Position numbers and translations under genes: made by a program. Under the pieces are notes generated by a model. It was not told where the DNA came from and did no database searches. It saw nothing but the letters and a program-made list of their open reading frames with translations. This document shows, piece by piece, positions 3,250 through 56,400 of a DNA stretch of 64,000 nucleotides. The stretch comes from Patescibacteria group bacterium (GTDB lineage: Bacteria > Patescibacteriota > Patescibacteriia > JAXHNJ01). The stretch spans positions 258,579 to 322,578 of the forward strand of contig JAXHNJ010000001.1 in the NCBI GenBank assembly GCA_034520665.1, in the 5' to 3' direction. Every line of letters begins with the position of its first letter. Position 1 is the stretch's first letter.

Positions 3250-3489
3250 AACAACATCGCACAACACCAAATATCTGGCTTGAAAATTTTTCAGTTATTA
3301 GAAAAAACAAGGAGTGAAAAATTTCCGCGCCTAAATTTCGCACTTTTCCGTTTAGTGGTAATTTAGAGTATAATTAATTTAACAATATAATCAGAATATC
3401 AAAGTTTTTAGCACATAAACCAAAGCGCGAAACTTCAGATATTCGGATACGTTATACGCAATTCAGAATTTTATTTTCAAACAATCACA

Positions 3490-3966
3490 ATGATAAAAAT
3501 AATATATGCAACAATTGAAGATTATGATGACTTTCTTGATGTATTCAAGGAGATTGAAGAATATCATAGAGTAAATGCTTCTTGGAAATTTCAAAAACCT
3601 AAACCTGAATTATTTCCAAGAGATTATTTTCATAAAGTAATTGAAGATGAAAATGGTATATTTTTTTTAGCCAAGGATAATACTAAAATTGTTGGTTATT
3701 TAACAGCTTTTGAAGAAAAATCTCCTGATAGGTCCATGTTAAAACTGAGAAAATATATACAGATAGATGATTTATCTGTAAGAAGCGATTATAGAAAAAA
3801 AGGTATCGGTACTTTACTAATGGATAAACTTGAAGAATTGGCTAAAAAAAATAAAATCTATGAAGTGGAGCTTAATGTATGGTGTTTTAACAAAGGTGCA
3901 ATAAAGTTTTATGAAAATAAAGGATATGAATCATTTACTCAGAAAATGAGGAAAGTTTTAAAATAA
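3490..3966 (+). CDS. GNAT family N-acetyltransferase
   Basis: Motif A (R/Q-x-x-G-x-G/A) seen as RKKGIGTLLM, and an FYENKGY C-terminal motif typical of the GNAT fold. Confidence 0.65.
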   Translation: MIKIIYATIEDYDDFLDVFKEIEEYHRVNASWKFQKPKPELFPRDYFHKVIEDENGIFFLAKDNTKIVGYLTAFEEKSPDRSMLKLRKYIQIDDLSVRSDYRKKGIGTLLMDKLEELAKKNKIYEVELNVWCFNKGAIKFYENKGYESFTQKMRKVLK

Positions 3967-4121
3967 AATTTTGAACTTCTCGCTATCGCTCCGTTCGGCT
4001 CGCTTAACAGAAGTATATGCGGTTTGCTCGTTGCCCTTTGCTTTCCCAAATTCTTCACCACGTTTGAAATTTACCTTAAGCCCGATATTAGATCTAATTT
4101 ACAAAACAATTTTTAAATTAT

Positions 4122-4952
4122 ATGGAAAAAAATCTAGAACAATCACAATCTACTAAAAAAATGGAAAAGCCGGAAGATTGGCTGCCAGGGGGGACTGAGC
4201 AAGAACAATATCTCAAAGAACATAAGGAATGGCGGGGTTTAGAAAAACGATTAGGGCAACCGAGGATATTAAATAATGTTTATTTCCCGGAAATTTTAGC
4301 TTGGATTCAAGAAGAATTTAAAGATAATCCTGATGCTTTTTCTTATTTCGAGGCAGGCTGTGGCCACGGAAATGATTTTCGAACCATAAGAAAAGAGCTT
4401 AAGGCTAGAGGCCGCTATCTCGGCGTTGATATGAGTAAGGCAGAAATCATTCACGGGATGAAATTTTATAAAGACGCGGAGGAAGCAAGAAAATTATTTG
4501 CTCAAGGTGATCTTCGTAATTTAAGACATGTTAATATTTGGGATAGGGGAAAAAGAGATTTTTCTCAACCTGTGGAAATTAAAGATGGCGAATTTGATCT
4601 TATCTATATGGAGGCGGTGTTACACGGACTTGGTTATAGTAAAAAAACCTTTCAAGAGAAAAAGGAATCAGCCCAACAGATGCTTAATGAATTATATCGT
4701 ATTTGTAAAGCTGGAGGAAAATTTTTTGGACGAGCCTCCATATTTGGCTCCACCATTACAAAAGAAAAACAATTTGAACTTCTGCGCAAGACAAATAATT
4801 GGCGCTTCATTCCTGAAGCTGAAGAATTTAAAGAAATACTTAAAAAAGCAGGGTTTACAAATATTAAAGGGGCATTGACTCCACATGAAAAAGCAAAAGA
4901 GGATCCAAATAAAAAAGATATTCTGCGATTTTCTTTTTTAGCTGAAAAATAA
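4122..4952 (+). CDS. class I SAM-dependent methyltransferase
   Basis: Motif I EAGCGHGND, then an acidic residue at the end of beta-2 (LGVDMS). Confidence 0.6.
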   Translation: MEKNLEQSQSTKKMEKPEDWLPGGTEQEQYLKEHKEWRGLEKRLGQPRILNNVYFPEILAWIQEEFKDNPDAFSYFEAGCGHGNDFRTIRKELKARGRYLGVDMSKAEIIHGMKFYKDAEEARKLFAQGDLRNLRHVNIWDRGKRDFSQPVEIKDGEFDLIYMEAVLHGLGYSKKTFQEKKESAQQMLNELYRICKAGGKFFGRASIFGSTITKEKQFELLRKTNNWRFIPEAEEFKEILKKAGFTNIKGALTPHEKAKEDPNKKDILRFSFLAEK

Positions 4953-4985: not shown

Positions 4986-5090
4986 GTACATAACAAGGTA
5001 TATCTGGTTTCGCTTCTCCTAAGGTTGTCCCTTGATATAAATTTAATACTTCAGATATACGCGAACGTTAATTGCAATTTAGTTTAGGAC
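4986..5090 (+). repeat. attC-like boundary repeat (ATAACAAGGTATATCTGG ... CAGATATACGCGAACGTTAAT)
   Basis: Outer arms are reverse-complementary. An identical copy sits at 8345-8449 inside the segmental duplication. Confidence 0.55.
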
Positions 5091-5134: not shown

Positions 5135-5608
5135 ATGAAGTTTAGAAAATTTAAGAAGAGTGATATTAGACAGATTGCAAAAATTAAGAATTCTGTTTTT
5201 AGTAGTTTCAATAAATCAGAATATTTTGAAAAAGGAACCGTTTCAAAATATTTAAATTACACCAATTCAAAAAAGTCAGACAAAGAACTCCTTGAAGCAT
5301 TTAAGATAACTAAGGATTCTATTTTTTATGTTGCTGAAGAAAATGATAAAATTTTCGGATATATCAAAGGAAGAAAAAATAGAATCGGGAATTTGTTTGT
5401 TCTTGGTCAAAACCATAAAAAAGGGATTGGTAGAAAATTAGTTAATTTATTTGAAAAAGAAGCAGAAAAACAGAACTCTAAAGAAATTAAGATTCACTCT
5501 TCAATTTATGCAGTTCCTTTCTATCAAAAAAGGGGTTATAAGAAAACTACTGGAATTAGAAATCTTCATGGCTTGAAGATTCAACCAATGAAAAAAGTCC
5601 TAAACTAG
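5135..5608 (+). CDS. GNAT family N-acetyltransferase (paralog 1 of 2)
   Basis: HKKGIGRKLV motif A. 98% identical to the ORF at 8494..8967. Confidence 0.65.
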   Translation: MKFRKFKKSDIRQIAKIKNSVFSSFNKSEYFEKGTVSKYLNYTNSKKSDKELLEAFKITKDSIFYVAEENDKIFGYIKGRKNRIGNLFVLGQNHKKGIGRKLVNLFEKEAEKQNSKEIKIHSSIYAVPFYQKRGYKKTTGIRNLHGLKIQPMKKVLN

Positions 5609-5993
5609 ACTTCTTCGAAATTTTTTCAGAATTCCTCGACCCCGCTGCGCTCTCGCCTATGGCTCGGGGTAATTAACAGGATTTTAACGGAAAAATACTC
5701 GGCTCGCATTTTCCCAAATCGCCTACGGCAAAACTTCTCTAAATCCTGAAGTTGTGCAAGACCCCATTTCTTGCCAAGAGGATTTTCAGGATTTTTTGAG
5801 AAAAGGGGAGTAGGGGAAGAGGTTTTTTATTGGTAAAAAAAATGGTAAACTATAGACAGTATCGGATTATATAATGGTTTAATAAAACTTCGTATAATAA
5901 CGAGTTAAGTGAAATTGAGAATTTGTCCTATGAGATTTAAATGGGCACGATTTTTTCCGAAAACTTTATATCACTACATACTTTTATTAATTT

Positions 5994-6470
5994 ATGATGG
6001 ACATAATCAAAATAAGCGAAGATTTCGCAAAAAAAGAATATGCAAAGCATGATGAACTTCACCAATGGAATCATGTTGAAGATGTGATGAATGTGGCTTT
6101 GAAATTATCCGAGTTTCATCCAGAAGCAAATTTAGAAATTTTAAAACTTGCTGTTATCTTTCATGATATTAGTTATGAACAATATGAAACTCATGTTGAA
6201 GAGTCCATGAAAGTAGCAGAAAAATTTCTAAAAGAGCAGGATTATCCGGAAGATAGAATCAAGAAAGTTTTGCAAGTGATGATTTCTCATTCTGGCCCTC
6301 ACAGAAGAAAACTCGGTGAAGCAAAAATGATTGAGGGAAAAATCATTTATGATTCTGATAAATTCCATCTTGCAAAAACTAGAGAGGGATTTGAAAAATA
6401 TTTTGATAGATTTTATCTGGATGAAACTCGTGATATGATTAAAAAAACGTGCCCTGAATTCTTTAAATAA
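5994..6470 (+). CDS. HD-domain phosphohydrolase
   Basis: H...HD motif (HDELHQWNHVED ... IFHDISY). Confidence 0.55.
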   Translation: MMDIIKISEDFAKKEYAKHDELHQWNHVEDVMNVALKLSEFHPEANLEILKLAVIFHDISYEQYETHVEESMKVAEKFLKEQDYPEDRIKKVLQVMISHSGPHRRKLGEAKMIEGKIIYDSDKFHLAKTREGFEKYFDRFYLDETRDMIKKTCPEFFK

Positions 6471-6708
6471 ATGTAAACTTGACGGACAAATTCTCAACTT
6501 GCTCACTATCGTTCGCACCACGCTGCGCTCTCACTTCGTTCGACCCTCATTTAACAAGGGATAAAAGGAAAATTGCTCGGCTCGCAATTTTCCCAAATTT
6601 TCTCCACTACGTTCTGAAAACTTCTTTTATCCCTGATGTTATATGAAATAAATTTTGGCGCGCTAGAAAAAAACCTTAATAAACAAATTCCCCCTAAGTA
6701 TTATTAAC

Positions 6709-8095: not shown

Positions 8096-8311
8096 ATGAA
8101 AAATTTTGAAAAAAACATTGGCCAAGGAGAAAGTTTATTAGAATTAGCCGCAAAAAAACTTAATTTAGATCCAAAAAACACCTCGTTAAATGAAGTAGAG
8201 GCAGTTATGCTTGGATTGCCAAAAGAAAGTTCCGTTTATGAGGTTGAAAAAGCAAAAGAGGATCCAAATAAAAAAGATATTCTGCGATTTTCTTTTTTAG
8301 CTGAAAAATAA
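8096..8311 (+). CDS. hypothetical protein; the last 20 aa are identical to the C-terminus of the methyltransferase at 4122..4952 (chimeric ORF at a duplication junction)
   Basis: C-terminus KAKEDPNKKDILRFSFLAEK is shared. The duplication breakpoint falls inside the ORF. Confidence 0.3.
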   Translation: MKNFEKNIGQGESLLELAAKKLNLDPKNTSLNEVEAVMLGLPKESSVYEVEKAKEDPNKKDILRFSFLAEK

Positions 8312-8493
8312 TTTTTTCAGATTAAAAAATGTATTTTGCAAACAGTACATAACAAGGTATATCTGGTTTCGCTTCTCCTAAGGTTGTCCCTTGATATAAA
8401 TTTAATACTTCAGATATACGCGAACGTTAATTGCAATTTAGTTTAGGACTTTCTGACATAAAATTTATATAATACATAACCCATTTTTTTCTT

Positions 8494-8967
8494 ATGAAGT
8501 TTAGAAAATTTAAGAAGAGTGATATTAGACAGATTGCAAAAATTAAGAATTCTGTTTTTAGTAGTTTCAATAAATCAGAATATTTTGAAAAAGGAACCGT
8601 TTCAAAATATTTAAATTACACCAATCCAAAAAAGTCAGACAAAGAACTCCTTGAAGCATTTAAGATAACTAAGGATTCTATTTTTTATGTTGCTGAAGAA
8701 AATGATAAAATTTTCGGATATATCAAAGGAAGAAAAAATAGAATCGGGAATTTGTTTGTTCTTGGTCAAAACCATAAAAAAGGGATTGGTAGAAAATTAG
8801 TTGATTTATTTGAAAAAGAAGCAGAAAAACAGAACTCTAAAGAAATTAAGATTAACTCTTCAATTTATGCAGTTCCTTTCTATCAAAAAAGGGGTTATAA
8901 GAAAACTACTGGAATTAGAAATCTTCATGGCTTGAAGATTCAACCAATGAAAAAAGTCCTAAACTAA
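8494..8967 (+). CDS. GNAT family N-acetyltransferase (paralog 2 of 2)
   Basis: Differs from 5135..5608 by three substitutions (S45P, N104D, H130N). Confidence 0.65.
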   Translation: MKFRKFKKSDIRQIAKIKNSVFSSFNKSEYFEKGTVSKYLNYTNPKKSDKELLEAFKITKDSIFYVAEENDKIFGYIKGRKNRIGNLFVLGQNHKKGIGRKLVDLFEKEAEKQNSKEIKINSSIYAVPFYQKRGYKKTTGIRNLHGLKIQPMKKVLN

Positions 8968-9007
8968 ACTTCTTCGAAATTTTTTCAGAATTCCTCGACC
9001 CCGCTGC

Positions 9008-9084
9008 CTGCCCGCCATAGTCTACGGCATCAGGCCTTGGCTCGCCCGCCTGAGTTGCTCAGGCAAGTCGGGCGGCAGGCGGGC
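9008..9084. repeat. 77-bp GC-rich palindromic insertion (REP/MITE-like) present in only one copy of the duplicated repeat
   Basis: CTGCCCGCC...GCCTGAGTTGCTCAGGC...GGCAGGCGGGC has terminal and internal inverted repeats. The paralogous position 5647/5648 is uninterrupted. Confidence 0.6.
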
Positions 9085-9412
9085 GCTCTCGCCTATGGCT
9101 CGGGGTAATTAACAGGATTTTAACGGAAAAATACTCGGCTCGCATTTTCCCAAATCGCCTACGGCAAAACTTCTCTAAATCCTGAAGTTGTGCCAAACCC
9201 CATTTTTTGCCAAGAGGATTTTCAGGATTTTTTGAAACAAGGGAAGTAGGAGAAGAGGTTTTTTTATTGGTAAAAAAAATGGTAAACTATAGACAGTGTT
9301 GGATTAATATAATGGTTTAATAAAAATTCGCATAATAAACAAATTTGAGGTGATTATACGAAATCAATTCGTATAATAACGAGTTATCGGAAATAAAAAT
9401 AGTAAAATTTTT

Positions 9413-10157: not shown

Positions 10158-10832
10158 ATGACAACAAAACTTCGCGAACCAGATGAAGAAAATTATGTCT
10201 TTACCGAGGGTATTGATTATTCAAAAACAGAAAAAAAATTTATCTGGGGAACTGGTGATAAAGACACTCTGGAGCTTCTGAATGATATTAAAATTCGAGG
10301 CAAGTGGCTAAACCTTGCCGCTGGTGATGGACGTTACAATTTGAATTTGTTGGAAAAAGTTAATTCAGTTGTTGCTTCAGATATTGATGAAGGTGCGCTT
10401 GGCAAATTGAAACAAAACACACCTAACGAACTAAGAGAAAAACTACAAACAGAAATTTTTGATATAACTAAACCATTTCCATTTGAAGATGAATCATTTG
10501 ACGGTGTGTTTTGCACTGGGACATTACATCTTTTTCCAACTGAAATTTTGCAGCAAATTATTTTAGAGATTGATAGAATTCTAAAATCCAATGGCAAACT
10601 GATTATAGACTTTGCAACTGACATCAAACGTATTCTGCCAGATGGCAAACTTTATATCAGAAAATCTGAACCTCAATACACTGCCGAAGAAGCCGCAAAA
10701 TTTCTCAGAGAATTATTGCACAATTATCAAATTCAAATTGTAGAATCAGAAGTTCCAGAGGAAGAAATTAAGACGCGAGGTTTTGTTTATAGATTTAGTT
10801 GTAAATTCATTTTACTAACAGCAGATAAATAA
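10158..10832 (+). CDS. class I SAM-dependent methyltransferase
   Basis: Motif I LNLAAGDGRYN, then VVASDID (acidic residue at the end of beta-2). Confidence 0.6.
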   Translation: MTTKLREPDEENYVFTEGIDYSKTEKKFIWGTGDKDTLELLNDIKIRGKWLNLAAGDGRYNLNLLEKVNSVVASDIDEGALGKLKQNTPNELREKLQTEIFDITKPFPFEDESFDGVFCTGTLHLFPTEILQQIILEIDRILKSNGKLIIDFATDIKRILPDGKLYIRKSEPQYTAEEAAKFLRELLHNYQIQIVESEVPEEEIKTRGFVYRFSCKFILLTADK

Positions 10833-11172
10833 TGACGGCGACCCCCACAACTCTCGCCAGCCCTTCGGGACGTTGCACTAAATTTTTGCCCTTCGGGACA
10901 TATAACAAGGGATATGAGGTTACGAAGTTTTGCAGACTTCTTTACTCAAATTCGCCTACGGCGAACTTCTCATAAGCCCGATGTTAAATGAAATTTTGCC
11001 TTGAAATGTGAAGTGAAAAATATTCGTGCTATTAAAAAAAGATAGTTCGTAATTTCAAAATTTATTTTATTTATCGGCAAAACTTCACTTAACACTGTGT
11101 ATCTGGTTCCGTAAAAGAGAAAAATTAAATAATTCTCTATTTTTAAAAGCCTTTTTTCAATTTTTTTACAAA

Positions 11173-12207: not shown

Positions 12208-12256
12208 ATTGCCAAAAAATAATAATAAGGAATAGAAATTTCTGTCAACATCACAT

Positions 12257-12400
12257 AACAGCGTGTATCTGGTTCGGCAAATTTGACACAATTAGATTCA
12301 AAAGGAATGTCAAATCTACCTCTCCCAAATTTCGCAAAAAAATACTATTTTTAAAGGAATTTTTGCGAAACTTCAGATACACGCAAACGTTATACGCAAT
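12257..12400 (+). repeat. attC-like boundary repeat, the best-preserved copy
   Basis: Outer arms ATAACAGCGTGTATCTGGTTCGG ... CTTCAGATACACGCAAACGTTATACG. Two inner inverted repeats: AAATTTGACA/TGTCAAAT and TTTCGCAAAAA/TTTTTGCGAAA. Confidence 0.6.
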
Positions 12401-15337: not shown

Positions 15338-15625
15338 ACTTTTGAATAAGGAGTTTTGAAAAATGGAATTCACCCCTAACCCCCGCCCGCCTCGCTACGC
15401 GAAGCGTTGCGGGCAGGCCTCTGCCCAAAATTCAAAACGGGAAAAATCAAATTTATAAGAATTAAAGAAAGTCTATCATGAAGAATAAGAACGAAAAATA
15501 TTTTTTGAACTCACTCCGCTTTGCTCCGCAAAACATCAAATATAGGCAAACCTTGTGCCAGACCTCATTTCTTGTCAAGAGGATTTCCAGGACTTTTTAA
15601 GAAAATGAAATTAATTTATTAAAAT

Positions 15626-21421: not shown

Positions 21422-22018
21422 ATGGCTAAATTAATGAATTGGCCTTATTTTAGTCAAAAATTAGACCAAAAAAAGATAAAAATATTCTCTCCCTTTGATT
21501 TAAAACGGTTATTTGGCGTGTCTGAAACCTCAATCAGATTTTTTTTGCATCGCTACACAAAAAAAGGCTATATAAAAAAATTAAAAAGGGGTTTGTATTG
21601 TTTGTCTAATCAACCGCCTAATGATTATTACTTAGCTAATAAACTATATGAACCTTCTTATATTTCTTTTGAGCAGGCTTTAAGCTATTATCATATAATA
21701 CCAGAAACTGTTTATACCATTACGTCAGCCACAAGTAAAGCAACAAGGGAATTTGAATGTTTAGGTAAAAGTTTTTATTATCATCGAGTAAAAAAATCAT
21801 TATTTTTTGGTTATAAACAGAAAATATTTTCTAACCAGATAATTTTAATGGCAAGAGCCGAAAAAGCTTTTGTGGACTATTTATATTTTGTTTCACTCAA
21901 AAAGAAAAAAATGCTGGATCGTTTTGACAAAAATAAAATTAATAAAGATAAAGTAATGAAGTTAGCTAGAGTTTATAAAAATAAAAAAATCAAAGAATTA
22001 ATTATTAAATATTTATGA
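21422..22018 (+). CDS. AbiEi-like antitoxin/transcriptional regulator (type IV toxin-antitoxin, COG5340-like)
   Basis: N-terminal winged-helix-like segment (FSPFDLKRLFGVSETSIRFFLHRYTKKGYIKKLKRGLY). Stop overlaps the start of the downstream nucleotidyltransferase (ATGA). Confidence 0.55.
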   Translation: MAKLMNWPYFSQKLDQKKIKIFSPFDLKRLFGVSETSIRFFLHRYTKKGYIKKLKRGLYCLSNQPPNDYYLANKLYEPSYISFEQALSYYHIIPETVYTITSATSKATREFECLGKSFYYHRVKKSLFFGYKQKIFSNQIILMARAEKAFVDYLYFVSLKKKKMLDRFDKNKINKDKVMKLARVYKNKKIKELIIKYL

Positions 22019-22743
22019 TAGATTATTCTAGTCTTCAGAATTTAGCCACCGAATACAAAACTACTAATCAAAATGCAGCTAGAGAATATTGCCAGCATAT
22101 TTTTTTGTCGAATCTTTATAAATTAAACTTAAGTGGGGTAGAGAATTTATTATTTAAAGGTGGCACAGCCTTGAAAATAGTCTATCAAAGTCCTAGATTT
22201 TCTGAAGATCTTGATTTCTCCTCATTTAGTTTGGATAAAAAAAATATTGAAGAAATATTTATTAATGTATTAGCGGAAATTGAGAAAAGCGGTTTTCAAA
22301 CAAAATTAACTGAAGCTAAAAAAACTAGCGGTGGATATTTAGGCAAGGCGTTTTTTTTATTTCTGGATTTTAATTTGGAAATAATGATTCAAGTACATTT
22401 TAAAAAGGAAGAAAAAATTAATGGTGATTTTCATCTAATTACCAGCGATTATTTACCAGCCTATAATTTATTAGTTTTACCCGAGAATATTTTGGTTAAT
22501 GAAAAAATAAAAGCAACCATTACACGCGGAAAACCCAGAGATTTTTATGACGTTTATTTTATCTTAAGAAAAAATTTATTAATTCCTGAAAATAAAGAAA
22601 ACCTTAAAAAGGTCTTGAACAGTTTAGAAAATTCCAAAATTAATTTTAAACAAGAATTAGGAATTTTTTTACCCAAGGATCAGCAGCAGATTATTGGTAA
22701 TTTTGAAAATGTTTTAAAAGCTGAAATAAAAAGACATTTGTAA
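22015..22743 (+). CDS. AbiEii/AbiGii family nucleotidyltransferase toxin (DUF1814)
   Basis: FKGGTALKIVYQSPRFSEDLDFS signature (GG[TS]AL ... RFSEDIDF). Confidence 0.7.
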   Translation: MIDYSSLQNLATEYKTTNQNAAREYCQHIFLSNLYKLNLSGVENLLFKGGTALKIVYQSPRFSEDLDFSSFSLDKKNIEEIFINVLAEIEKSGFQTKLTEAKKTSGGYLGKAFFLFLDFNLEIMIQVHFKKEEKINGDFHLITSDYLPAYNLLVLPENILVNEKIKATITRGKPRDFYDVYFILRKNLLIPENKENLKKVLNSLENSKINFKQELGIFLPKDQQQIIGNFENVLKAEIKRHL

Positions 22744-30249: not shown

Positions 30250-30861
30250 ATGGCGGAATTAACCAAAAAACAGCAAGATATACTAAATTACGTAGTCAAT
30301 TATATTCAAGACCATGAATACAGTCCTTCTTTTCAGGAAATTGGCCAGAATTTTGGCCTGTCTTCCAAAGCCACGGTTTCAGCCCATGTTCACGCCTTGA
30401 TAAAAAAAGGTTATTTAAGAAAGGTCAAGGGCTTAGCTCGGTCTTTAAACCTGACTAAAAAAGTTTATCAGCAGGGCCAGGCCGTGCAGCTGCCGCTTTT
30501 GGGCTTGATCGCCGCGGGTGAGCCAATTGAAGCTATTGAAGATAATGAAATGGTTTCTGTACCGGCCGGGGTGGTGCAGGACGCCAACTCTTATGTTTTA
30601 AAAGTAAAAGGGCAGTCCATGATTGAAGAAGGTATACTGGATGGTGATTATGTGGTAGTGGAAAGGAATTTTTATCCGCAAAACGGAGACGTGGTAGTGG
30701 CTTTGCTGGATAATGAATATGCCACCTTGAAAAAATATTTTCGTGAGAAAAACCGCATTCGCCTGCAGCCGGCTAATAAAACCATGAAACCAATTTTTGC
30801 CAAGAATCCGGCTATCCAGGGCATTGTCCGGGGCATTTACCGGGTCTTTTCTCATGCGTAA
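30250..30861 (+). CDS. lexA: LexA repressor (S24 peptidase)
   Basis: N-terminal winged helix-turn-helix. Cleavage-site region AAGEPIEA. Catalytic Ser within GQSM, and Lys further downstream. Confidence 0.85.
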   Translation: MAELTKKQQDILNYVVNYIQDHEYSPSFQEIGQNFGLSSKATVSAHVHALIKKGYLRKVKGLARSLNLTKKVYQQGQAVQLPLLGLIAAGEPIEAIEDNEMVSVPAGVVQDANSYVLKVKGQSMIEEGILDGDYVVVERNFYPQNGDVVVALLDNEYATLKKYFREKNRIRLQPANKTMKPIFAKNPAIQGIVRGIYRVFSHA

Positions 30862-30919
30862 AGGAAATATAAAGGAAACAGGAAGTGGCAAGACTGAAAA
30901 GTATTATTAATAATCTTTC

Positions 30920-31851
30920 ATGAAAAAATATAATCTTAAGAACCAAGTTCATTTCATCACTATTAATACATATAAAAAATACTGGCTTTTTAAGAAAGAA
31001 AATCTTTGCCAAATAGTAATTGATAATCTAAATTTTTACCGCCGTAAATTTAGTTTTAAATTATTGGGTTACGTAATTATGCCTAATCATCTACATTTAT
31101 TAATCCAATTAAATAAAAAATATAATGATATTTCAAAGGTAATGAGGGATTTTAAGAAATTTACAAGTGTTCAAATTATAAAGCAGTTAATAAAAGAAAA
31201 TGAAAAAGATTTACTTAAGAAATTTTCTATGACTGGAAAAATTTTTAATTATCCCTCTACTCTGGGTACTGCCCGATCCTCAGATCGGGCCGGCTTTCCA
31301 GCTGAAGGCCGAATCTGAGGATTCGGCCTACCCGACTAGTTTTAGAAAGAAGAGAAAATATTCAGTCTGGATGAATGATTTTTACGACTTTAACATCTAT
31401 TCCGAGAATCTTCTACTCTGGGTACTGCCCGATCCTCAGATCGGGCCGGCTTTCCAGCCGAATCTGAGGATTCGGCTTACCCGACTAGTTTTAGAAGGAA
31501 GAGAAAATATTCAGTCTGGATGAATGATTTTTACGATTTTAATATCTATTCCGAGAATTTTCTACTCTGGGTACTGCCCGATCCTCAGATCGGGCTAGTC
31601 TCTCGGCCGAATCTGAGGATTCGGACTACCCGACTAGTTTTAGAAAGAAAAGAAAATATTCAGTCTGGATGAATAATTTTTACGACTTTAATATCTATTC
31701 CGAGAATAAACTAGAGCAAAAACTTAATTATATTCATAATAATCCAGTCAAAGCCAAGATAGTTAAAAAACCTGAGGATTATAAATGGTCTTCTTACAGA
31801 AATTATTATTTGGATGATGATTCAATAATAGAAATTAATCAGTTATTTTAA
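30920..31851 (+). pseudogene. Disrupted IS200/IS605-type (REP-associated) tyrosine transposase gene, interrupted by three tandem 149-156-bp repeats that each carry a GC-rich double hairpin
   Basis: N-terminal part 30920..31318 has the HuH motif (MPNHLHLLIQ). C-terminal part 31669..31851 has the catalytic Tyr region (VWMNDFYDFNIY...YIHNNPVKAKIV...DYKWSSY). The 149-bp repeat is not a multiple of 3, so the frame is broken. Confidence 0.6.
31254..31707 (+). repeat. Three tandem copies (156, 149, 149 bp) of a unit made of a GC-rich palindromic element plus about 75 bp of transposase coding sequence
   Basis: Each unit has the hairpins GCCCGATCCTCAGATCGGGC and CCGAATCTGAGGATTCGG. A fourth partial copy sits at 31928-32143. 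Confidence 0.8.
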
Positions 31852-32160
31852 ATAATTTAAATTCTTAAAATATGGTATTACTAAATATTATTTCTGGGTA
31901 GGCGAAAGCCCTCGCTTTTGCCATACTTTGATGCTTAAAACATTTTCTATGACTGGCAAAATTTTTAATTATCTCTCTACTCTGGGTACTGCCCGATCCT
32001 CAGATTGGGCCGGCTTTCCAGCCGAATCTGAGGATTCGGCCTACCCGACTAGTTTTAGAAAGAAAAGAAAATATTCAGTCTGGATGAATGATTTTTACGA
32101 TTTTAATATCTATTCCGAGCATAAATTTAATAATAGAAATTAATAGACTATAAAAAAAAC

Positions 32161-32409
32161 ATGCACGAAAAAATTAACGAGCCAATAAAAGTTCTAGCTT
32201 CTTTTTTAAAAGGGCAGGTTAGTCCGCTTTCTTTTGTTTGGCAGGGCCGGCGCTATAATCCGACTAAAATTAATTTGGTTCATTCAGAGAGAAAAGGTAA
32301 AGGAAAAATTTATTATTTTTCGGTTTCCGATAATTCTAATTTTTACCGGCTGGCTTTTAATAATGAAAATCTTAACTGGCGCTTGATGGAAATATATTCG
32401 CAAAATTAA
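32161..32409 (+). CDS. hypothetical protein (82 aa)
   Basis: ORF only. Confidence 0.3.
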   Translation: MHEKINEPIKVLASFLKGQVSPLSFVWQGRRYNPTKINLVHSERKGKGKIYYFSVSDNSNFYRLAFNNENLNWRLMEIYSQN

Positions 32410-32420
32410 ATTTTTTAGAT

Positions 32421-32610
32421 AAAAAAAGACCCGGACAACAAACAGGTCTCATAATAATGAAAAGATTTGTCGTCCGGGTTCCCCACATCAAGAAAGAGAA
32501 AATATGAGGGGCAAATTTCCCGTGCCCAGCAGTTTATAGCTCGGCGAACGCCGGCTAAACACGGACGAAAATTCGCCCCCTAGCTCTCTTTCAATAAAAA
32601 TTATTTTAAA
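32421..32610 (-). ncRNA. candidate structured small RNA (about 180 nt) on the minus strand, with its own terminator
   Basis: Minus-strand Rho-independent terminator: 13-bp stem CCCGGACGACAAA/TTTGTTGTCCGGG followed by TCTTTTTTT. Upstream segment has nested long-range pairing (GAGGGGCAAATTTCC with GAAAATTCGCCCCC, and CCGTG with CACGG). A rc-TTGACA sits at about 32645. No ORF. Confidence 0.3.
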
Positions 32611-32880
32611 AAGGGCAAAGTAATTTTATACAAAATAATAATTTTGTCAAGTATTTTTTGGCTACCAAGCTTATTTTTGGCTAATATTAGTTTATTAATA
32701 TCTAAATTCTAAACAAATTTTAAATTACAATATTTTAAACTATAAATTATTTTGATTTTTCGAGAATAGAACCAAATACTTTCATAAGTTTTGTAGATTC
32801 GTTGATTAGTATATTTTTTTTCTCCCACTTGTTGATTTATAGGATTAGTTAACCTTTTTATTATCAACAAAAAGATATCT

Positions 32881-33183
32881 CAAAAATTATCTTACACATT
32901 GATATGAATAGCTATTTTGCTTCTTGTGAACAGCCCCGCACCACTTCTCTTCGGCGCTCAGAGTTGGATGCGGGACGAAGTTTAATTAATTTTATATTTT
33001 TATGACTTCGATTATCTTACATATTGACATGAACAGCTATTTTGCTTCCTGTGAGCAGCCCCGCACCAATTCCTCGTTTTACTCGGAACGATGCGGGACG
33101 AAGTTTAATTAATTTTATATTTTCATGACTTCGATTATCTTACACATTGATATGAACAGCTATTTTGCTTCTTGTGAACAGCA
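32881..33183 (+). repeat. Three tandem 122-bp repeats. Each holds the first ~55 nt of the dinB coding sequence plus an upstream GC-rich hairpin; the third copy is the functional gene start
   Basis: ATGACTTCGATTATCTTACA(C/T)ATTGA(T/C)ATGAACAGCTATTTTGCTTC recurs at 32886, 33003 and 33125. Hairpins CCCGCACC...GATGCGGG lie between copies. 122 is not a multiple of 3; the decoy ATG at 33003 opens a 38-codon frame. Confidence 0.8.
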
Positions 33184-34330
33184 AGCTAATCCTTTTTTAC
33201 GGGGTAGACCGGTCGGAGTTTGCGCTTATTTGTCAGAGCAGGGTTGTATTATTGCTTCGTCCATTGAAGCTAAAAAAAAAGGAGTGAAAACTGGCTGTCG
33301 CGTCAAGGAAGCCAAGCAGCTTTGTCCAGATATTTTTTTAATGGAAAACGAGCCGGCTAAATACCGCAGTATTACTAAAAAAATTTTCTCTATTCTAGCC
33401 GAATATACCGATAAACTAGAGCCTTACAGTATTGACGAGGCTTTTTTAGATCTCACTGGTTGGTCTAAAAACTTTAAACAAGCTAAAGAAAAAGCTAAAG
33501 AAATTAAAGATCGAATAAAGAACGAAGTCGGGGACTGGCTCAAAGCCTCGGTCGGTCTTTCTTACACCCGCTGGCTGGCCAAATTTGCTTCAGACCAGGC
33601 CGATAAAGATAGTATTTTAATAATAAAGAAAGATAATTTAGATAAATTTTTAAAAAGACCCTTAACCAGTGCTTGGGGTATTAATTACCGACTGGAGAGT
33701 AGACTAAAATCTTTGGGTATTTTTAATTTGCTCGATTTAAAAAAATATCCAGTAGCTAATCTAATGCAAGTTCTGGGTCGGCCTGGCTATTATCTCTGGG
33801 CTAATGTTAACGGTCTACCGACAGAAAAAGTAAAAAAACAAAAAGAGCCTAAATCAGTCGGTCATAGCTATTGTTTATACCAAAAATCAAAGGATATCGA
33901 TTATTTATCTTCAGTTTTGCTCAAGCTTTGCGAAAAAACCGGCCGCCGCCTGCGGCTTTTGGAAAAAGAGGCTCACTCAATCAGCTTTGGCTTAAGATTT
34001 AAAAACGGCGGCGGCCTTCATCAGGTAAAGAGAATTAAAAATGGTCTTTTTACCACCAAAAGTATTTTTCGAACTGCTTTAAAGATTATGTCAAAAATTC
34101 ATCTTTATGAAGAAGTTTCTTTTCTAGCCATATCAGTTTCGCACCTGTGGTCAATCAGCCGGCAAATGTCTCTTTTTAAAGATAATCTTAAAGAAAAAGA
34201 GATAAGCTTGGCTATGGACAAAATTAATGATCAATACGGCCAGTACTTGGTTTACTGGGGGAGTATGCACGGCACTGATAAAGTGGCCCGCGACCGCATT
34301 GGCTTTCGTAAAACTGTTAATACAAATTAA
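33125..34330 (+). CDS. dinB: DNA polymerase IV (Y-family, translesion synthesis)
   Basis: N-terminal ILHIDMNSYFASCEQ. Catalytic DE (SIDEAFLDLT). Length and organisation match DinB. Confidence 0.9.
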   Translation: MTSIILHIDMNSYFASCEQQANPFLRGRPVGVCAYLSEQGCIIASSIEAKKKGVKTGCRVKEAKQLCPDIFLMENEPAKYRSITKKIFSILAEYTDKLEPYSIDEAFLDLTGWSKNFKQAKEKAKEIKDRIKNEVGDWLKASVGLSYTRWLAKFASDQADKDSILIIKKDNLDKFLKRPLTSAWGINYRLESRLKSLGIFNLLDLKKYPVANLMQVLGRPGYYLWANVNGLPTEKVKKQKEPKSVGHSYCLYQKSKDIDYLSSVLLKLCEKTGRRLRLLEKEAHSISFGLRFKNGGGLHQVKRIKNGLFTTKSIFRTALKIMSKIHLYEEVSFLAISVSHLWSISRQMSLFKDNLKEKEISLAMDKINDQYGQYLVYWGSMHGTDKVARDRIGFRKTVNTN

Positions 34331-34432
34331 GAAGCGGGTAAACTTTAAATTAAAAAACTATCAAATAGGACATTTCTAAATAATTCAAAGTAGGACATTT
34401 CTAGCTCACCTTTACATGAGTATTATTTTTTC

Positions 34433-34460
34433 TTGACAAAAAACAAGGGAGTGATATAAT
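34433..34460 (+). promoter_or_regulatory. near-consensus sigma70-type promoter (TTGACA, 16 nt, TATAAT)
   Basis: cTTGACAaaaaacaagggagtgaTATAATtaag. The transcript would cover four GCCGTCGG-type repeats (34476, 34492, 34572, 34590), a 29-codon ORF and a terminator before ssb. Confidence 0.5.
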
Positions 34461-34637
34461 TAAGTGGTAATCAAGCCGTCGGTAACACAATAGCCGTCGG
34501 ATAAAAATAAAAAGAAAAATCAAAACATAAAAATTTGTCCATTAAAATCGGAGGAAAGAGAAAATTAGCTTAGCGCCGTCGGAATTAAGCGCCGTCGTGA
34601 TAAAGTGTGGATAAATTTACTTATTATTAAAAATATT

Positions 34638-34727
34638 ATGAATAACTTAAAAAAATTTATTATTTATATAATCACTGGTCTTATTAAAGACATTATATTT
34701 ATTAACCAAACACCTCTTAATTTATAA
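34638..34727 (+). CDS. possible 29-aa hydrophobic leader/small peptide (MNNLKKFIIYIITGLIKDIIFINQTPLNL)
   Basis: ATG ORF whose 3' end overlaps the left arm of a terminator hairpin, just upstream of ssb. Confidence 0.2.
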   Translation: MNNLKKFIIYIITGLIKDIIFINQTPLNL

Positions 34728-34747
34728 AAGAGGTGTTTTTGTTTTTT
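34709..34747 (+). terminator. Rho-independent terminator / attenuator hairpin upstream of ssb
   Basis: ACACCTCTT-aatttataa-AAGAGGTGT followed by TTTTGTTTTTT. Confidence 0.5.
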
Positions 34748-34784
34748 AAAACAAAGTTGGTGGCTTAGCAAAAAGGAAAAAAAT

Positions 34785-35183
34785 ATGGATGTAAACAAAG
34801 TAACCTTGCTGGGTAATCTAACCAAAGATCCCGGCGCCAAGAAACTTTCATCTGGTCAAACAATTTCATTTTTTGACCTGGCCACTAACTATTCCTGGAA
34901 AGACGTTAAAACTAAGCAGAAAAAGGATTCTGTGGAGTATCATCATGTCTTAGCCTGGGGTAAACTAGCTGAAATTATTAAAAAGTATCTGAAAAAAGGC
35001 TCTCGAGTCTATTTAGAAGGCCGTTTGCAGCATAAGTCCTGGAAAGACAAAAAAGGTAATTTTCAAAACAAGACTAATGTGGTGACTGATAACCTGATTA
35101 TGCTCGGTCATAACGGCAAGAAAGGAGCTGAAATGACTAAAGAAGACATTGATGTTGATGAAATAAAAGTGGATGAAGATTAA
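34785..35183 (+). CDS. ssb: single-stranded DNA-binding protein
   Basis: OB-fold pattern VNKVTLLGNLTKDP ... HHVLAWGKLAE ... GSRVYLEGRLQHKSW, and an acidic C-terminal tail DIDVDEIKVDED. Confidence 0.8.
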   Translation: MDVNKVTLLGNLTKDPGAKKLSSGQTISFFDLATNYSWKDVKTKQKKDSVEYHHVLAWGKLAEIIKKYLKKGSRVYLEGRLQHKSWKDKKGNFQNKTNVVTDNLIMLGHNGKKGAEMTKEDIDVDEIKVDED

Positions 35184-55302: not shown

Positions 55303-56400
55303 ATTATAAAACGCGGAGATAAATTTTTTACTTACGCAAAAATAAACATCTCTATCCGCGTAGCTGGAGATTTATCTCCAGATTCATCTTTTAAAGCCTA
55401 TTAATTTTTCTTTTAGTCTCATCATTCCGATAATAATTACGATAACCTGAATATTTATAATCTTTGGGGTTTTTAAAGCTTTTATAAAAGACTCTATTAT
55501 TTTATCCGCGAGAAGAACTGGTCCCCAGACCGGTTCTGACAATATATTTAATAAGCTCAGACTTCTTGGTAAATTAGAGATTTAATAATCTATTTTGCTC
55601 GAGAAGGTTGGATCTCCTGATCCAACCGAATAAGGTGACGCGGATCAGAAGATCCGCGCTTCTCGGGTAATTTTAAGGGCTTCCTTGGCAGTTTGTTTTA
55701 TACTAGGTAGTTTCCAATGGCTTTTTTATTCCAAACCCACCACCAAAACCTTACTAGCTGCTATAACCATAACCAATTAGCAAAAAAGAGGGTTTTGGGC
55801 CGAGCCGCTAGTTTGGTTATTAGGCTGAGTCAATGGTTTTTTATTCCAAACCCACAACCAAAACCTTACTAGCTGCTATAACCATAACTAATTAGCAAAA
55901 CATAAATCGCCGGATAAATCCGGCGCCAGGCTATTAAATAATATAAAATATAATTTGGTGCAACATTCATATGGCGATATTTTAAAAAAGGTTTTTTCGC
56001 GAGAAGAACTGGTCCCCAGACCGGTTCTGGCAATATATTTACTAAGCTCAGACTTCTCGGTAAATTAGAGATTTAATAATCTATTTTTCTCGAGAAGGTT
56101 GGATCTCCTGATCCAACCGAATAAGGTGACGCGGATCAGGAGATCCGCGCTTCTCGGGTAATTTTAAGGGCTTCCTTGCCAGCTTGTTTTATACTAGGTA
56201 GATGCGGTGCGGGCCATGACCCGCCTCTAGGCCTGGTTCATTAATATTAAAAATAAATTTAAACAAAAGCATAATATTTGAATATTTAATATATAGCGGA
56301 AATAAAGATTCCCGCCTAGGCGATTTTATTTAAACGCGAAAATAAATCTTTTGCCTACGCCAAAACAAACATCTTTACCACGTCGGTGGAGATTTATCTC
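55303..56400. repeat. about 1.1-kb non-coding nested direct-repeat region: R1 – A(207 bp) – B(70 bp) – B' – A' – R1'
   Basis: A 55504-55710 and A' 55996-56201 are more than 95% identical with multiple hairpins. B 55727-55795 and B' 55833-55905 are CA-rich. R1 55303-55392 and R1' 56330-56400 contain the GGAGATTTATCTCC palindrome. Confidence 0.8.

Follow-up and report, generated by a model that had tools for sequence, protein, structure and literature searches.

Proteobacteria and Rickettsia are well known to carry small palindromic repeats. The Rickettsia palindromic elements (RPEs) insert in frame into housekeeping genes of small AT-rich genomes; they are 100–150 bp long and are not especially GC-rich. 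Hairpin MITEs derived from IS200/IS605 elements (PATEs) carry subterminal hairpins and have neither terminal inverted repeats nor target duplications. GC clusters and double-hairpin elements of fungal mitochondria form GC-rich nested hairpins in very AT-rich DNA, and sometimes lie in coding sequence.

RAYTs have been described as single-copy, vertically inherited genes (Bertels 2017, PMC5581495). REPtrons in species lacking REP families, as well as intragenic REP dimers, were described by Di Nocera 2013 (PMC3733652). A search of the literature on Saccharibacteria, Patescibacteria and CPR repeats, MITEs and RAYT/REPIN systems found nothing comparable for reduced CPR genomes.

The subject of this study is a 77-bp segment at positions 9008–9084 of a 64-kb stretch of DNA, here called the window, from a Patescibacteria genome of 34% GC. 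The window has a GC content of 33.6% and carries nearly all of its genes on the + strand. The segment is 70.1% GC, in keeping with the original prediction that GC-rich hairpins stand out from an AT-rich background. On balance, and with moderate confidence, we read the 77 bp as a small, non-autonomous, hairpin-forming mobile element that is low-copy, REP/MITE-like and untagged.

Like REPs, the 77-bp element is a short GC-rich imperfect palindrome found usually 3' of genes and sometimes in frame within ORFs, and terminal repeats and target duplications are absent. It differs from REPs in having no GTAG/CGTC tag, in its apparently low copy number, with one copy in the 64-kb window, and in being unlike the RAYT-linked hairpins. 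With CGTC-type or transposase-less REPs (PMC3733652) it shares 8–9 bp stems, the lack of an associated transposase gene and some intragenic copies, but there is no consistent CGTC tag, as TCGTCG follows the stem in only one copy of a Candidatus Saccharibacteria MAG that also carries the element. That MAG has a copy in pth which adds 33 residues, and in-frame palindromic mini-elements of this kind resemble RPEs (PMC3733652); there is no sequence relation to RPEs, however, and the window copy is extragenic. In its subterminal hairpins and its lack of terminal inverted repeats and target duplication the element is reminiscent of PATEs, and the Y1 HUH family is present in the genome, but no conserved target tetranucleotide (from one datable insertion of known empty site and the left flanks of the MAG copies), related left and right hairpins or parent IS was found. 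GC-rich nested hairpins scattered through an AT-rich genome also recall the GC clusters of fungal mitochondria, which belong to another domain of life and have no sequence relation to the element.

An insertion with its empty site, together with a repeat family in a second genome, offers a handle on element movement where transposases are few. The copies of its core hairpin also bear on the question of whether such elements reshape proteins in frame.

The insertion in a cassette array

Positions 1 to ~15,600 are an integron-type cassette array. At least 14 small + strand ORFs were recognized there, including NUDIX, GNAT, methyltransferase, HD, VTT and 2'-5' ligase-like genes, and imperfect inverted repeats with attC-like ends (TAACA...GTTA) lie between them. 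No integrase was found in the 64-kb window; it would sit upstream of position 1 or be absent. Some of the attC-like pairs passed a script scan. The pair of the GNAT cassette was not among the scan's reports at the -9 kcal/mol cut-off, and was read by eye. The features around the insertion are as follows.

4988–5073, 6549–6644, 8347–8432, 10900–10989 and 12253–12395: examples of attC-like pairs that passed the script scan
5638–5670, + strand: empty target site, a small GC-rich stem CCCCG...CGGGG whose loop holds 5647|5648, identified by paralogue comparison
8494–8967, + strand: GNAT acetyltransferase cassette gene with the insertion in its 3' untranslated region (paralogue 5135–5608)
8997–9007, + strand: left half of the split host stem (GACCCCGCTGC)
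9008–9084, + strand: 77-bp insert with predicted nested hairpins, absent from the paralogue
9039–9077, + strand: core hairpin, CGCCCGCC-TGAG-TTG-CTCA-GGC-AAGT-CGGGCGG (63.7 bits with covariance model R1)
9085–9106, + strand: right half of the split host stem (GCTCTCGCCTATGGCTCGGGGT)
9107–9193, + strand: attC-like site of the GNAT cassette (AATTAACAGGATTT ... AATCCTGAAGTTGTGC; paralogue 5671–5757)

The block that begins at 4886 has a second copy from 8245 onward. The paralogous site 5647/5648 is without exactly these 77 bp, and the offset between the copies changes from 3359 to 3436, a register shift across the insertion of exactly 77. The left flank matches the paralogue over 762 nt with 4 mismatches and the right flank over 110 nt with none. 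This clean 77-bp difference within ~870 bp of 99.5% identical paralogous sequence was counted in favor of the mobile-element reading. The insertion junction is ambiguous by 2 nt (GC), therefore any target duplication is at most 2 bp.

The direction of the change was read from CGCTGCGCTYTC, which has a chance expectation of 0.11. Three cassettes carry it uninterrupted in their 3' regions, at 2732, 5643 and 6521, and the filled copy is the one place where it is split (9003/9085). The empty state is therefore ancestral and the filled one derived. A deletion in copy 1 instead of an insertion in copy 2 is ruled out by the contiguous CGCTGCGCTYTC elsewhere. The prediction that the 77 bp had been inserted into one copy of a repeat is thus upheld, both by the uninterrupted paralogue and by this polarity.

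The insertion lies in the 3' untranslated region, 40 nt downstream of the stop codon of the GNAT gene and 23 nt upstream of the attC-like site, and the distance from the stop codon to the core hairpin is 72 nt. The flanks of the window insertion pair with each other better than shuffled sequences do (p=0.034). Targeting of pre-existing palindrome loops was considered as a general rule and rejected, as pairing of the flanks of the MAG copies reached only p=0.07–0.5.

The source is a MAG with duplicated blocks that are 99.5% identical, and the duplicated cassette, the insertion or both might have arisen by chimeric joining of variants from different strains. Another assembly of run SRR26473340 does break at a repeat of this window: a Logan contig that is 100% identical to 33094–34374 ends exactly at the dinB repeat described below. 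We consider an assembly artefact extremely unlikely. If the copies were strain alleles, a presence/absence polymorphism of 77 bp would remain; the core was found independently in another genome; and the upstream junctions of the two blocks differ in a gene-like manner (ORF 8096–8311 vs ORF 4122–4952).

Several other features of the array were noted. The duplicated block begins within a gene: ORF 8096–8311 and a 276-aa methyltransferase (ORF 4122–4952) share their last 21 residues only. The block is therefore not cassette-precise, which suggests duplication by homologous or illegitimate recombination and not by integrase action. A repeat of ~250 bp follows some attC sites (466–648, 2748–2996, 5711–5900, 9147–9396 and 15512–15605) and contains a promoter-like TTGAGA...TGGTAAACT and hairpins based on TTCGTATAAT/ATTATACGAA. 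On the minus strand, the array segment 7541–7903 is of higher GC and contains a short ORF (MNMISGVGAST...GWY) with a GC hairpin after it; the segment may be a foreign cassette in reversed orientation.

Structure and classification of the insert

Two hairpins, a small one on the left (GCCATAGTCTACGGC) and the core hairpin, are nested in the 77-bp insert within an outer stem of 7 bp, GCCCGCC/GGCGGGC. The predicted DNA fold has a free energy of -32 kcal/mol (z=-2.8). The 39-nt core is asymmetric: its two stems are 8 bp and 6 bp long, its loop is TTG and its bulge is CAAGT. The heptamer GCCCGCC is found seven times in the window, vs 2.2 expected, and three of these occurrences fall within the insert. 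No second full-length copy of the 77 bp is known. Positions 36–68 of the insert alone recur, and the left 35 bp had no match by blastn-short.

Known classes of element were then compared with the insert. It has no DDE-type terminal inverted repeats, and a classical DDE-type MITE was rejected on this ground together with the absence of a fixed target-site duplication and of a parent IS; no transposase other than RAYT was found in the 64-kb window. Neither a GGGTAS nor a GTAG tag stands directly next to the core or to the outer stem. Although attC-like sites lie nearby, an attC or cassette origin was rejected: the insert has no attC motifs (RYYYAAC...GTTRRRY), and the junction is GCTGC|GCTCTC, not G|TT. 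An intrinsic terminator was rejected as well, since the window hairpin is followed by GCTCTCGCC and the MAG copies by non-T sequence, with no T-run. The copies are solitary and form no array, which eliminated a CRISPR repeat. Rfam 15 gave no match in the window at the gathering threshold, and the best sub-threshold score was 16.5 bits (E=0.1).

Relatives of the core hairpin in a second genome

Scanning 185,579 species genomes with the pattern GCCCGCCTGAGNNNCTCAGGC generated at least 80 loci. Among the matches listed, 76/80 were chance or terminator-like, nearly all in GC-rich genomes, and agreed with the core at no more than 14 of the 30 unspecified flanking and loop positions. The other four, again among the matches listed, agree at 18–20 of 30 positions, TTG loop and CAAGT bulge included. 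All four are in one Candidatus Saccharibacteria MAG (CAZDFQ01, GCA_964505005.1) of 44–51% GC. By BLAST, copies L039, L063a and L063b are identical to the core over 31–33 nt, and L006 matches over 33 nt with one mismatch. The flanks of the four copies are related neither to one another nor to the window, which was counted for the mobile-element reading.

R1, a covariance model of the core hairpin, identified a fifth copy in the MAG (L103:293–331) that has one G.T change and was missed by the exact scan. The element is therefore not confined to this window, as its core is present at five loci of the Saccharibacteria MAG. Within the 64-kb window R1 finds one copy, which was counted against the mobile-element reading, and 58.6 kb of sequence of other Patescibacteria contained none. 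No match to the core or the 77 bp was found in viral contigs, plasmids or phages. A protein search with four open translations of the core, insensitive with peptides of 12 residues, returned 2 candidates, none of which scored.

Three of the MAG copies belong to a three-hairpin unit of ~118 bp that is present at least three times and whose flanks diverge abruptly. Comparison of these three copies revealed no terminal repeats and no shared target duplication, and the left flanks of the MAG copies have no common motif and no common target motif. One copy of the unit lies antisense inside pth and adds 33 in-frame residues, which are missing from 8 homologues (54–62% identical). The comparison of empty and filled sites thus comprised the window paralogues and these distant pth homologues. 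Upstream, the likeness of the window insert to the MAG unit extends ~10 nt past the core (TTGGYTCG).

The insertion, its polarity and the recurrence of the core in unrelated contexts of a second genome are established by these comparisons. In the mobile-element reading, the portable or functional module would be the 39-nt asymmetric core hairpin. The element would have entered a GNAT integron cassette within its 3' untranslated region, at the loop of a short GC-rich stem, and the same core would have been built into other composite elements in the Saccharibacteria MAG, such as the ~118-bp three-hairpin repeat. Movement may occur as single-stranded DNA through a putative hairpin-recognizing enzyme acting in trans, of HUH/Y1 type or other. 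Copies located 47–80 nt past codirectional stops are perhaps tolerated there or act as RNA 3' hairpins.

The main rival, which we regard as possible though not probable, is that the core is not a transposon but has a function as a hairpin module of 3' UTRs or of DNA, e.g. as an RNA stabilizer or protein-binding site. It would be spread by recombination, gene conversion or horizontal cassette exchange, and the 77 bp would have entered via conversion from an unsampled allele or templated repair synthesis. A stretch of 28 nt, loop and bulge included, is invariant between genomes of 34% and 44–50% GC; judged from these alignments, such invariance could reflect functional constraint or horizontal transfer and not transposition. 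The position is recurrent too, as 3–4 of the first 5 core copies examined are 47–80 nt downstream of the stop of a codirectional ORF. The window site is in a cassette array, where alleles are exchanged, and the triplication of GCCCGCC inside the insert suggests some local templating. Such a module does not readily account for the copy that is antisense within the pth coding sequence or for the recurrence of the ~118-bp unit between unrelated flanks. The break in the window is precise and its flanks show no divergence, and the T-run of a terminator is absent. We therefore retain the mobile-element reading as the preferred one.

Three side observations were made in the Saccharibacteria MAG. Motifs of the ATTCGCAT type, which resemble the ~250-bp repeat of the window, flank copies L039 and L063b. 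Further perfect GC palindromes (GTCCCTGCCTGCCGGCAGGCAGGGC) lie near a core-hairpin copy, at L006 3311–3338. The C-terminus of pth has RINAD/ISINQR-type segments with the look of a translated repeat, and these are also present in several homologues.

The RAYT locus and its REP doublets

The original prediction placed a disrupted RAYT-type gene with REP-like hairpins at 30920–31851 and proposed that it mobilizes the GC-rich hairpins of the window. The features of this locus are listed here.

30920–31851, + strand: RAYT-type Y1 transposase pseudogene (PF01797; homologues named RayT)
31264–31631, + strand: three tandem REP doublets (GGGTAC plus hairpin ... hairpin plus TACCC), each followed by 74 bp of gene sequence
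31264–31333, 31420–31482, 31569–31631 and 31984–32046: the four REP doublet copies
31896–31927, + strand: single GGGTAG-tagged REP hairpin just 3' of RAYT (-7.9 kcal/mol)
L095 10345–10476, L099 1329–1390, L096 597–662, L098 991–1053, L100 ~3880–3970 and L101 ~6400–6440: in-frame doublet or long hairpin of the homologues

ORF 30920–31318 encodes a Y1_Tnp (PF01797) fragment (E=2.6e-10). Among the >2,000 homologues of the reconstructed RAYT, many bear the name 'REP element-mobilizing transposase RayT', and the truncated transposase ORF is identical to protein P0004, 'MAG: transposase [Patescibacteria group bacterium]', the reconstructed part aside. Its HUH and C-terminal Tyr motifs, NHLHLL and NYIHNNP, align with those of RayT homologues, and the window copy is frameshifted. 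The domain match, the homologues and the frameshift bear out the presence of the disrupted gene and its hairpins. The gene is broken by the tandem triplication of a 149-bp unit, the first copy of which also has a 7-bp indel. Each unit is made up of one doublet and 74 bp of coding sequence, and 149 is not a multiple of 3.

A doublet is laid out as GGGTAC, hairpin, spacer, hairpin and TACCC; the stem of the first hairpin is 8 bp long and that of the second 9 bp, and both loops are of 4 nt. The fourth doublet (31984–32046) is in a gene fragment at 31934–32122. All tagged hairpins of the window are found at 31265–32045, and tagged hairpins are likewise located downstream of the L095 homologue, at 10728 and 10825. 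GGGTA[C/G]-tagged hairpins away from RAYT loci were absent from the 64-kb window and from L095, L099 and L100. A metagenome exact-match scan for GCCCGATCCTCAGATCGGGC gave 13 matches, all on contigs of 60–70% GC, which were judged to be chance.

The closest RAYT homologues (62–66% identity) encode the doublet peptide in frame, sometimes twice. A doublet or a single long hairpin was identified at the same position at five homologue loci (L095, L096/97, L098, L099 and L100), and the L101 homologue has one long hairpin. When 9 doublets were aligned, 97% of cells were paired and 6/17 pairs had changed on both sides, a result matched by 0/500 shuffles. The doublet has thus been kept by compensatory substitutions throughout the RAYT clade, and in some cases it has been tandemly duplicated. 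Going by these alignments, the doublets are native to the RAYT clade and are not insertions that broke the gene. Double hairpins had been predicted inside the transposase gene; they are present in four copies, but their status as inserted elements did not hold, given that they are native and in frame.

The window locus resembles REP/REPIN-RAYT systems in its Y1_Tnp gene, in the GGGTAG/GGGTAC hairpins beside and inside that gene and in its inverted doublets. It differs in that the doublets are not dispersed and are conserved inside the RAYT reading frame. It matches the REPtrons of species lacking REP families and the intragenic dimers described previously (PMC3733652), and it also agrees with the description of RAYTs as single-copy genes passed on vertically (PMC5581495).

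The gene order lexA - RAYT - 82-aa ORF - dinB - ssb is common to the window (30250–35183) and GCA_043812155.1 (L099 407–5402). In L099, lexA, RAYT and orf82 are spaced by 4–7 bp and are operon-like. Linkage of lexA and RAYT was rejected as a general feature, as it was seen in 2/5 contexts only and three other RAYT homologues are not beside lexA. A doublet inside the RAYT frame, beside lexA and dinB, could inform the role of domesticated RAYTs for their hosts.

A candidate ncRNA was noted between orf82 and dinB, at 32420–32640 on the minus strand of the window and at ~1900–2250 of L099. Its promoter, TTGACA-17-TATAAAAT, is conserved in L099, and GC-rich AGGGGGCGAA is located at its start. The window copy ends in a terminator hairpin and T-run. 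Rfam had no match for this candidate.

Relationship among the GC-rich hairpins of the window

Two further sites had been grouped with the 77-bp element.

15378–15425, + strand: GC-rich hairpin in the 3' region of another cassette (R1 11.3 bits, E=2.7)
32935–33097, + strand: two dinB hairpins, 32935–32974 and 33060–33097, in the gaps of a threefold repeat of the first 49 bp of dinB

The hairpin at 15378–15425 could not be shown to be a relative of the 77-bp element. R1 scored it at 11.3 bits (E=2.7), the heptamer GCCCGCC is all that 15380–15418 has in common with the element, and blastn-short matches were 9–12 nt long.

The first 49 bp of dinB are present at 32886, 33011 and 33134 (span 32886–33182). 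Between consecutive copies stand a hairpin (CCCGCACC...GATGCGGG, with loops that differ) and a 36-bp leader giving a new ATG. Four synonymous changes distinguish the middle copy from the functional one. The start of the first copy looks ancestral, except that ATG has become ATC relative to the uninterrupted orthologue in L099. A diversity-generating retroelement was rejected for these repeats, as the differences are not adenine-specific. Hairpins do occur in the dinB repeats, as predicted, but not as members of the family of the 77-bp element, to which blastn-short found no similarity. The CTGAG/CTCAG core said to be shared by several elements likewise occurs, although it forms a stem in the 77-bp element vs a loop in the doublets.

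These comparisons bear on the proposal that the 77-bp element, the 15378 hairpin, the double hairpins and the dinB hairpins make up one REP family, all mobilized by the RAYT at 30920–31851. A RAYT-type gene is indeed present, the same contig carries a second RAYT (P0046), all of the elements are GC-rich hairpins in an AT-rich genome, and RAYTs are thought to mobilize REPs (PMC3733652, PMC5581495). Even so, we consider one such family very unlikely. The classes are without sequence or model similarity, and blastn-short between hairpin classes found none. The RAYT-linked hairpins have GGGTA[C/G] tags, 8–9 bp stems and 4-nt loops and are confined to RAYT loci; the tag is missing in the 77-bp element; and the window RAYT is a pseudogene. 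By R1 and blastn-short there are at least three unrelated classes plus GC-rich cassette 3' regions, which contradicts a single family. A mobilizing link from RAYT to the 77-bp element is likewise unsupported, as the element has no tag and no similarity to the RAYT hairpins. The RAYT locus (30920–32046) and the 77-bp element are separate systems, and no link between them was found. For annotation, the warning is that GC-rich islands of AT-rich genomes are a mix of unrelated things.

A bolder reading, which we regard as unlikely, is that two previously undescribed hairpin systems are present in Patescibacteria, namely a portable 39-nt core moved by an unrecognized ssDNA enzyme and an SOS-linked RAYT clade with an in-ORF REP doublet. 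In that case copies of the core may pass from one site or genome to an unrelated one and may even enter essential genes in frame, as in pth. The co-location of the RAYT with lexA/dinB in two genomes would point to a REP nuclease that is SOS-controlled, self-targeting or autoregulated. Its activity would have left footprints in the form of the 149-bp tandem amplifications and perhaps of the 5' repeats of dinB.

Two other observations were made in the window. Two ~210-nt units, 55501–55710 and 55992–56201, are 96% identical and rich in GC hairpins and lie inside a 1.4-kb ORF-free stretch; Rfam contained no family for them, and they may be a duplicated structured RNA. An AbiEi/AbiEii type IV toxin-antitoxin pair is encoded at 21422–22743.
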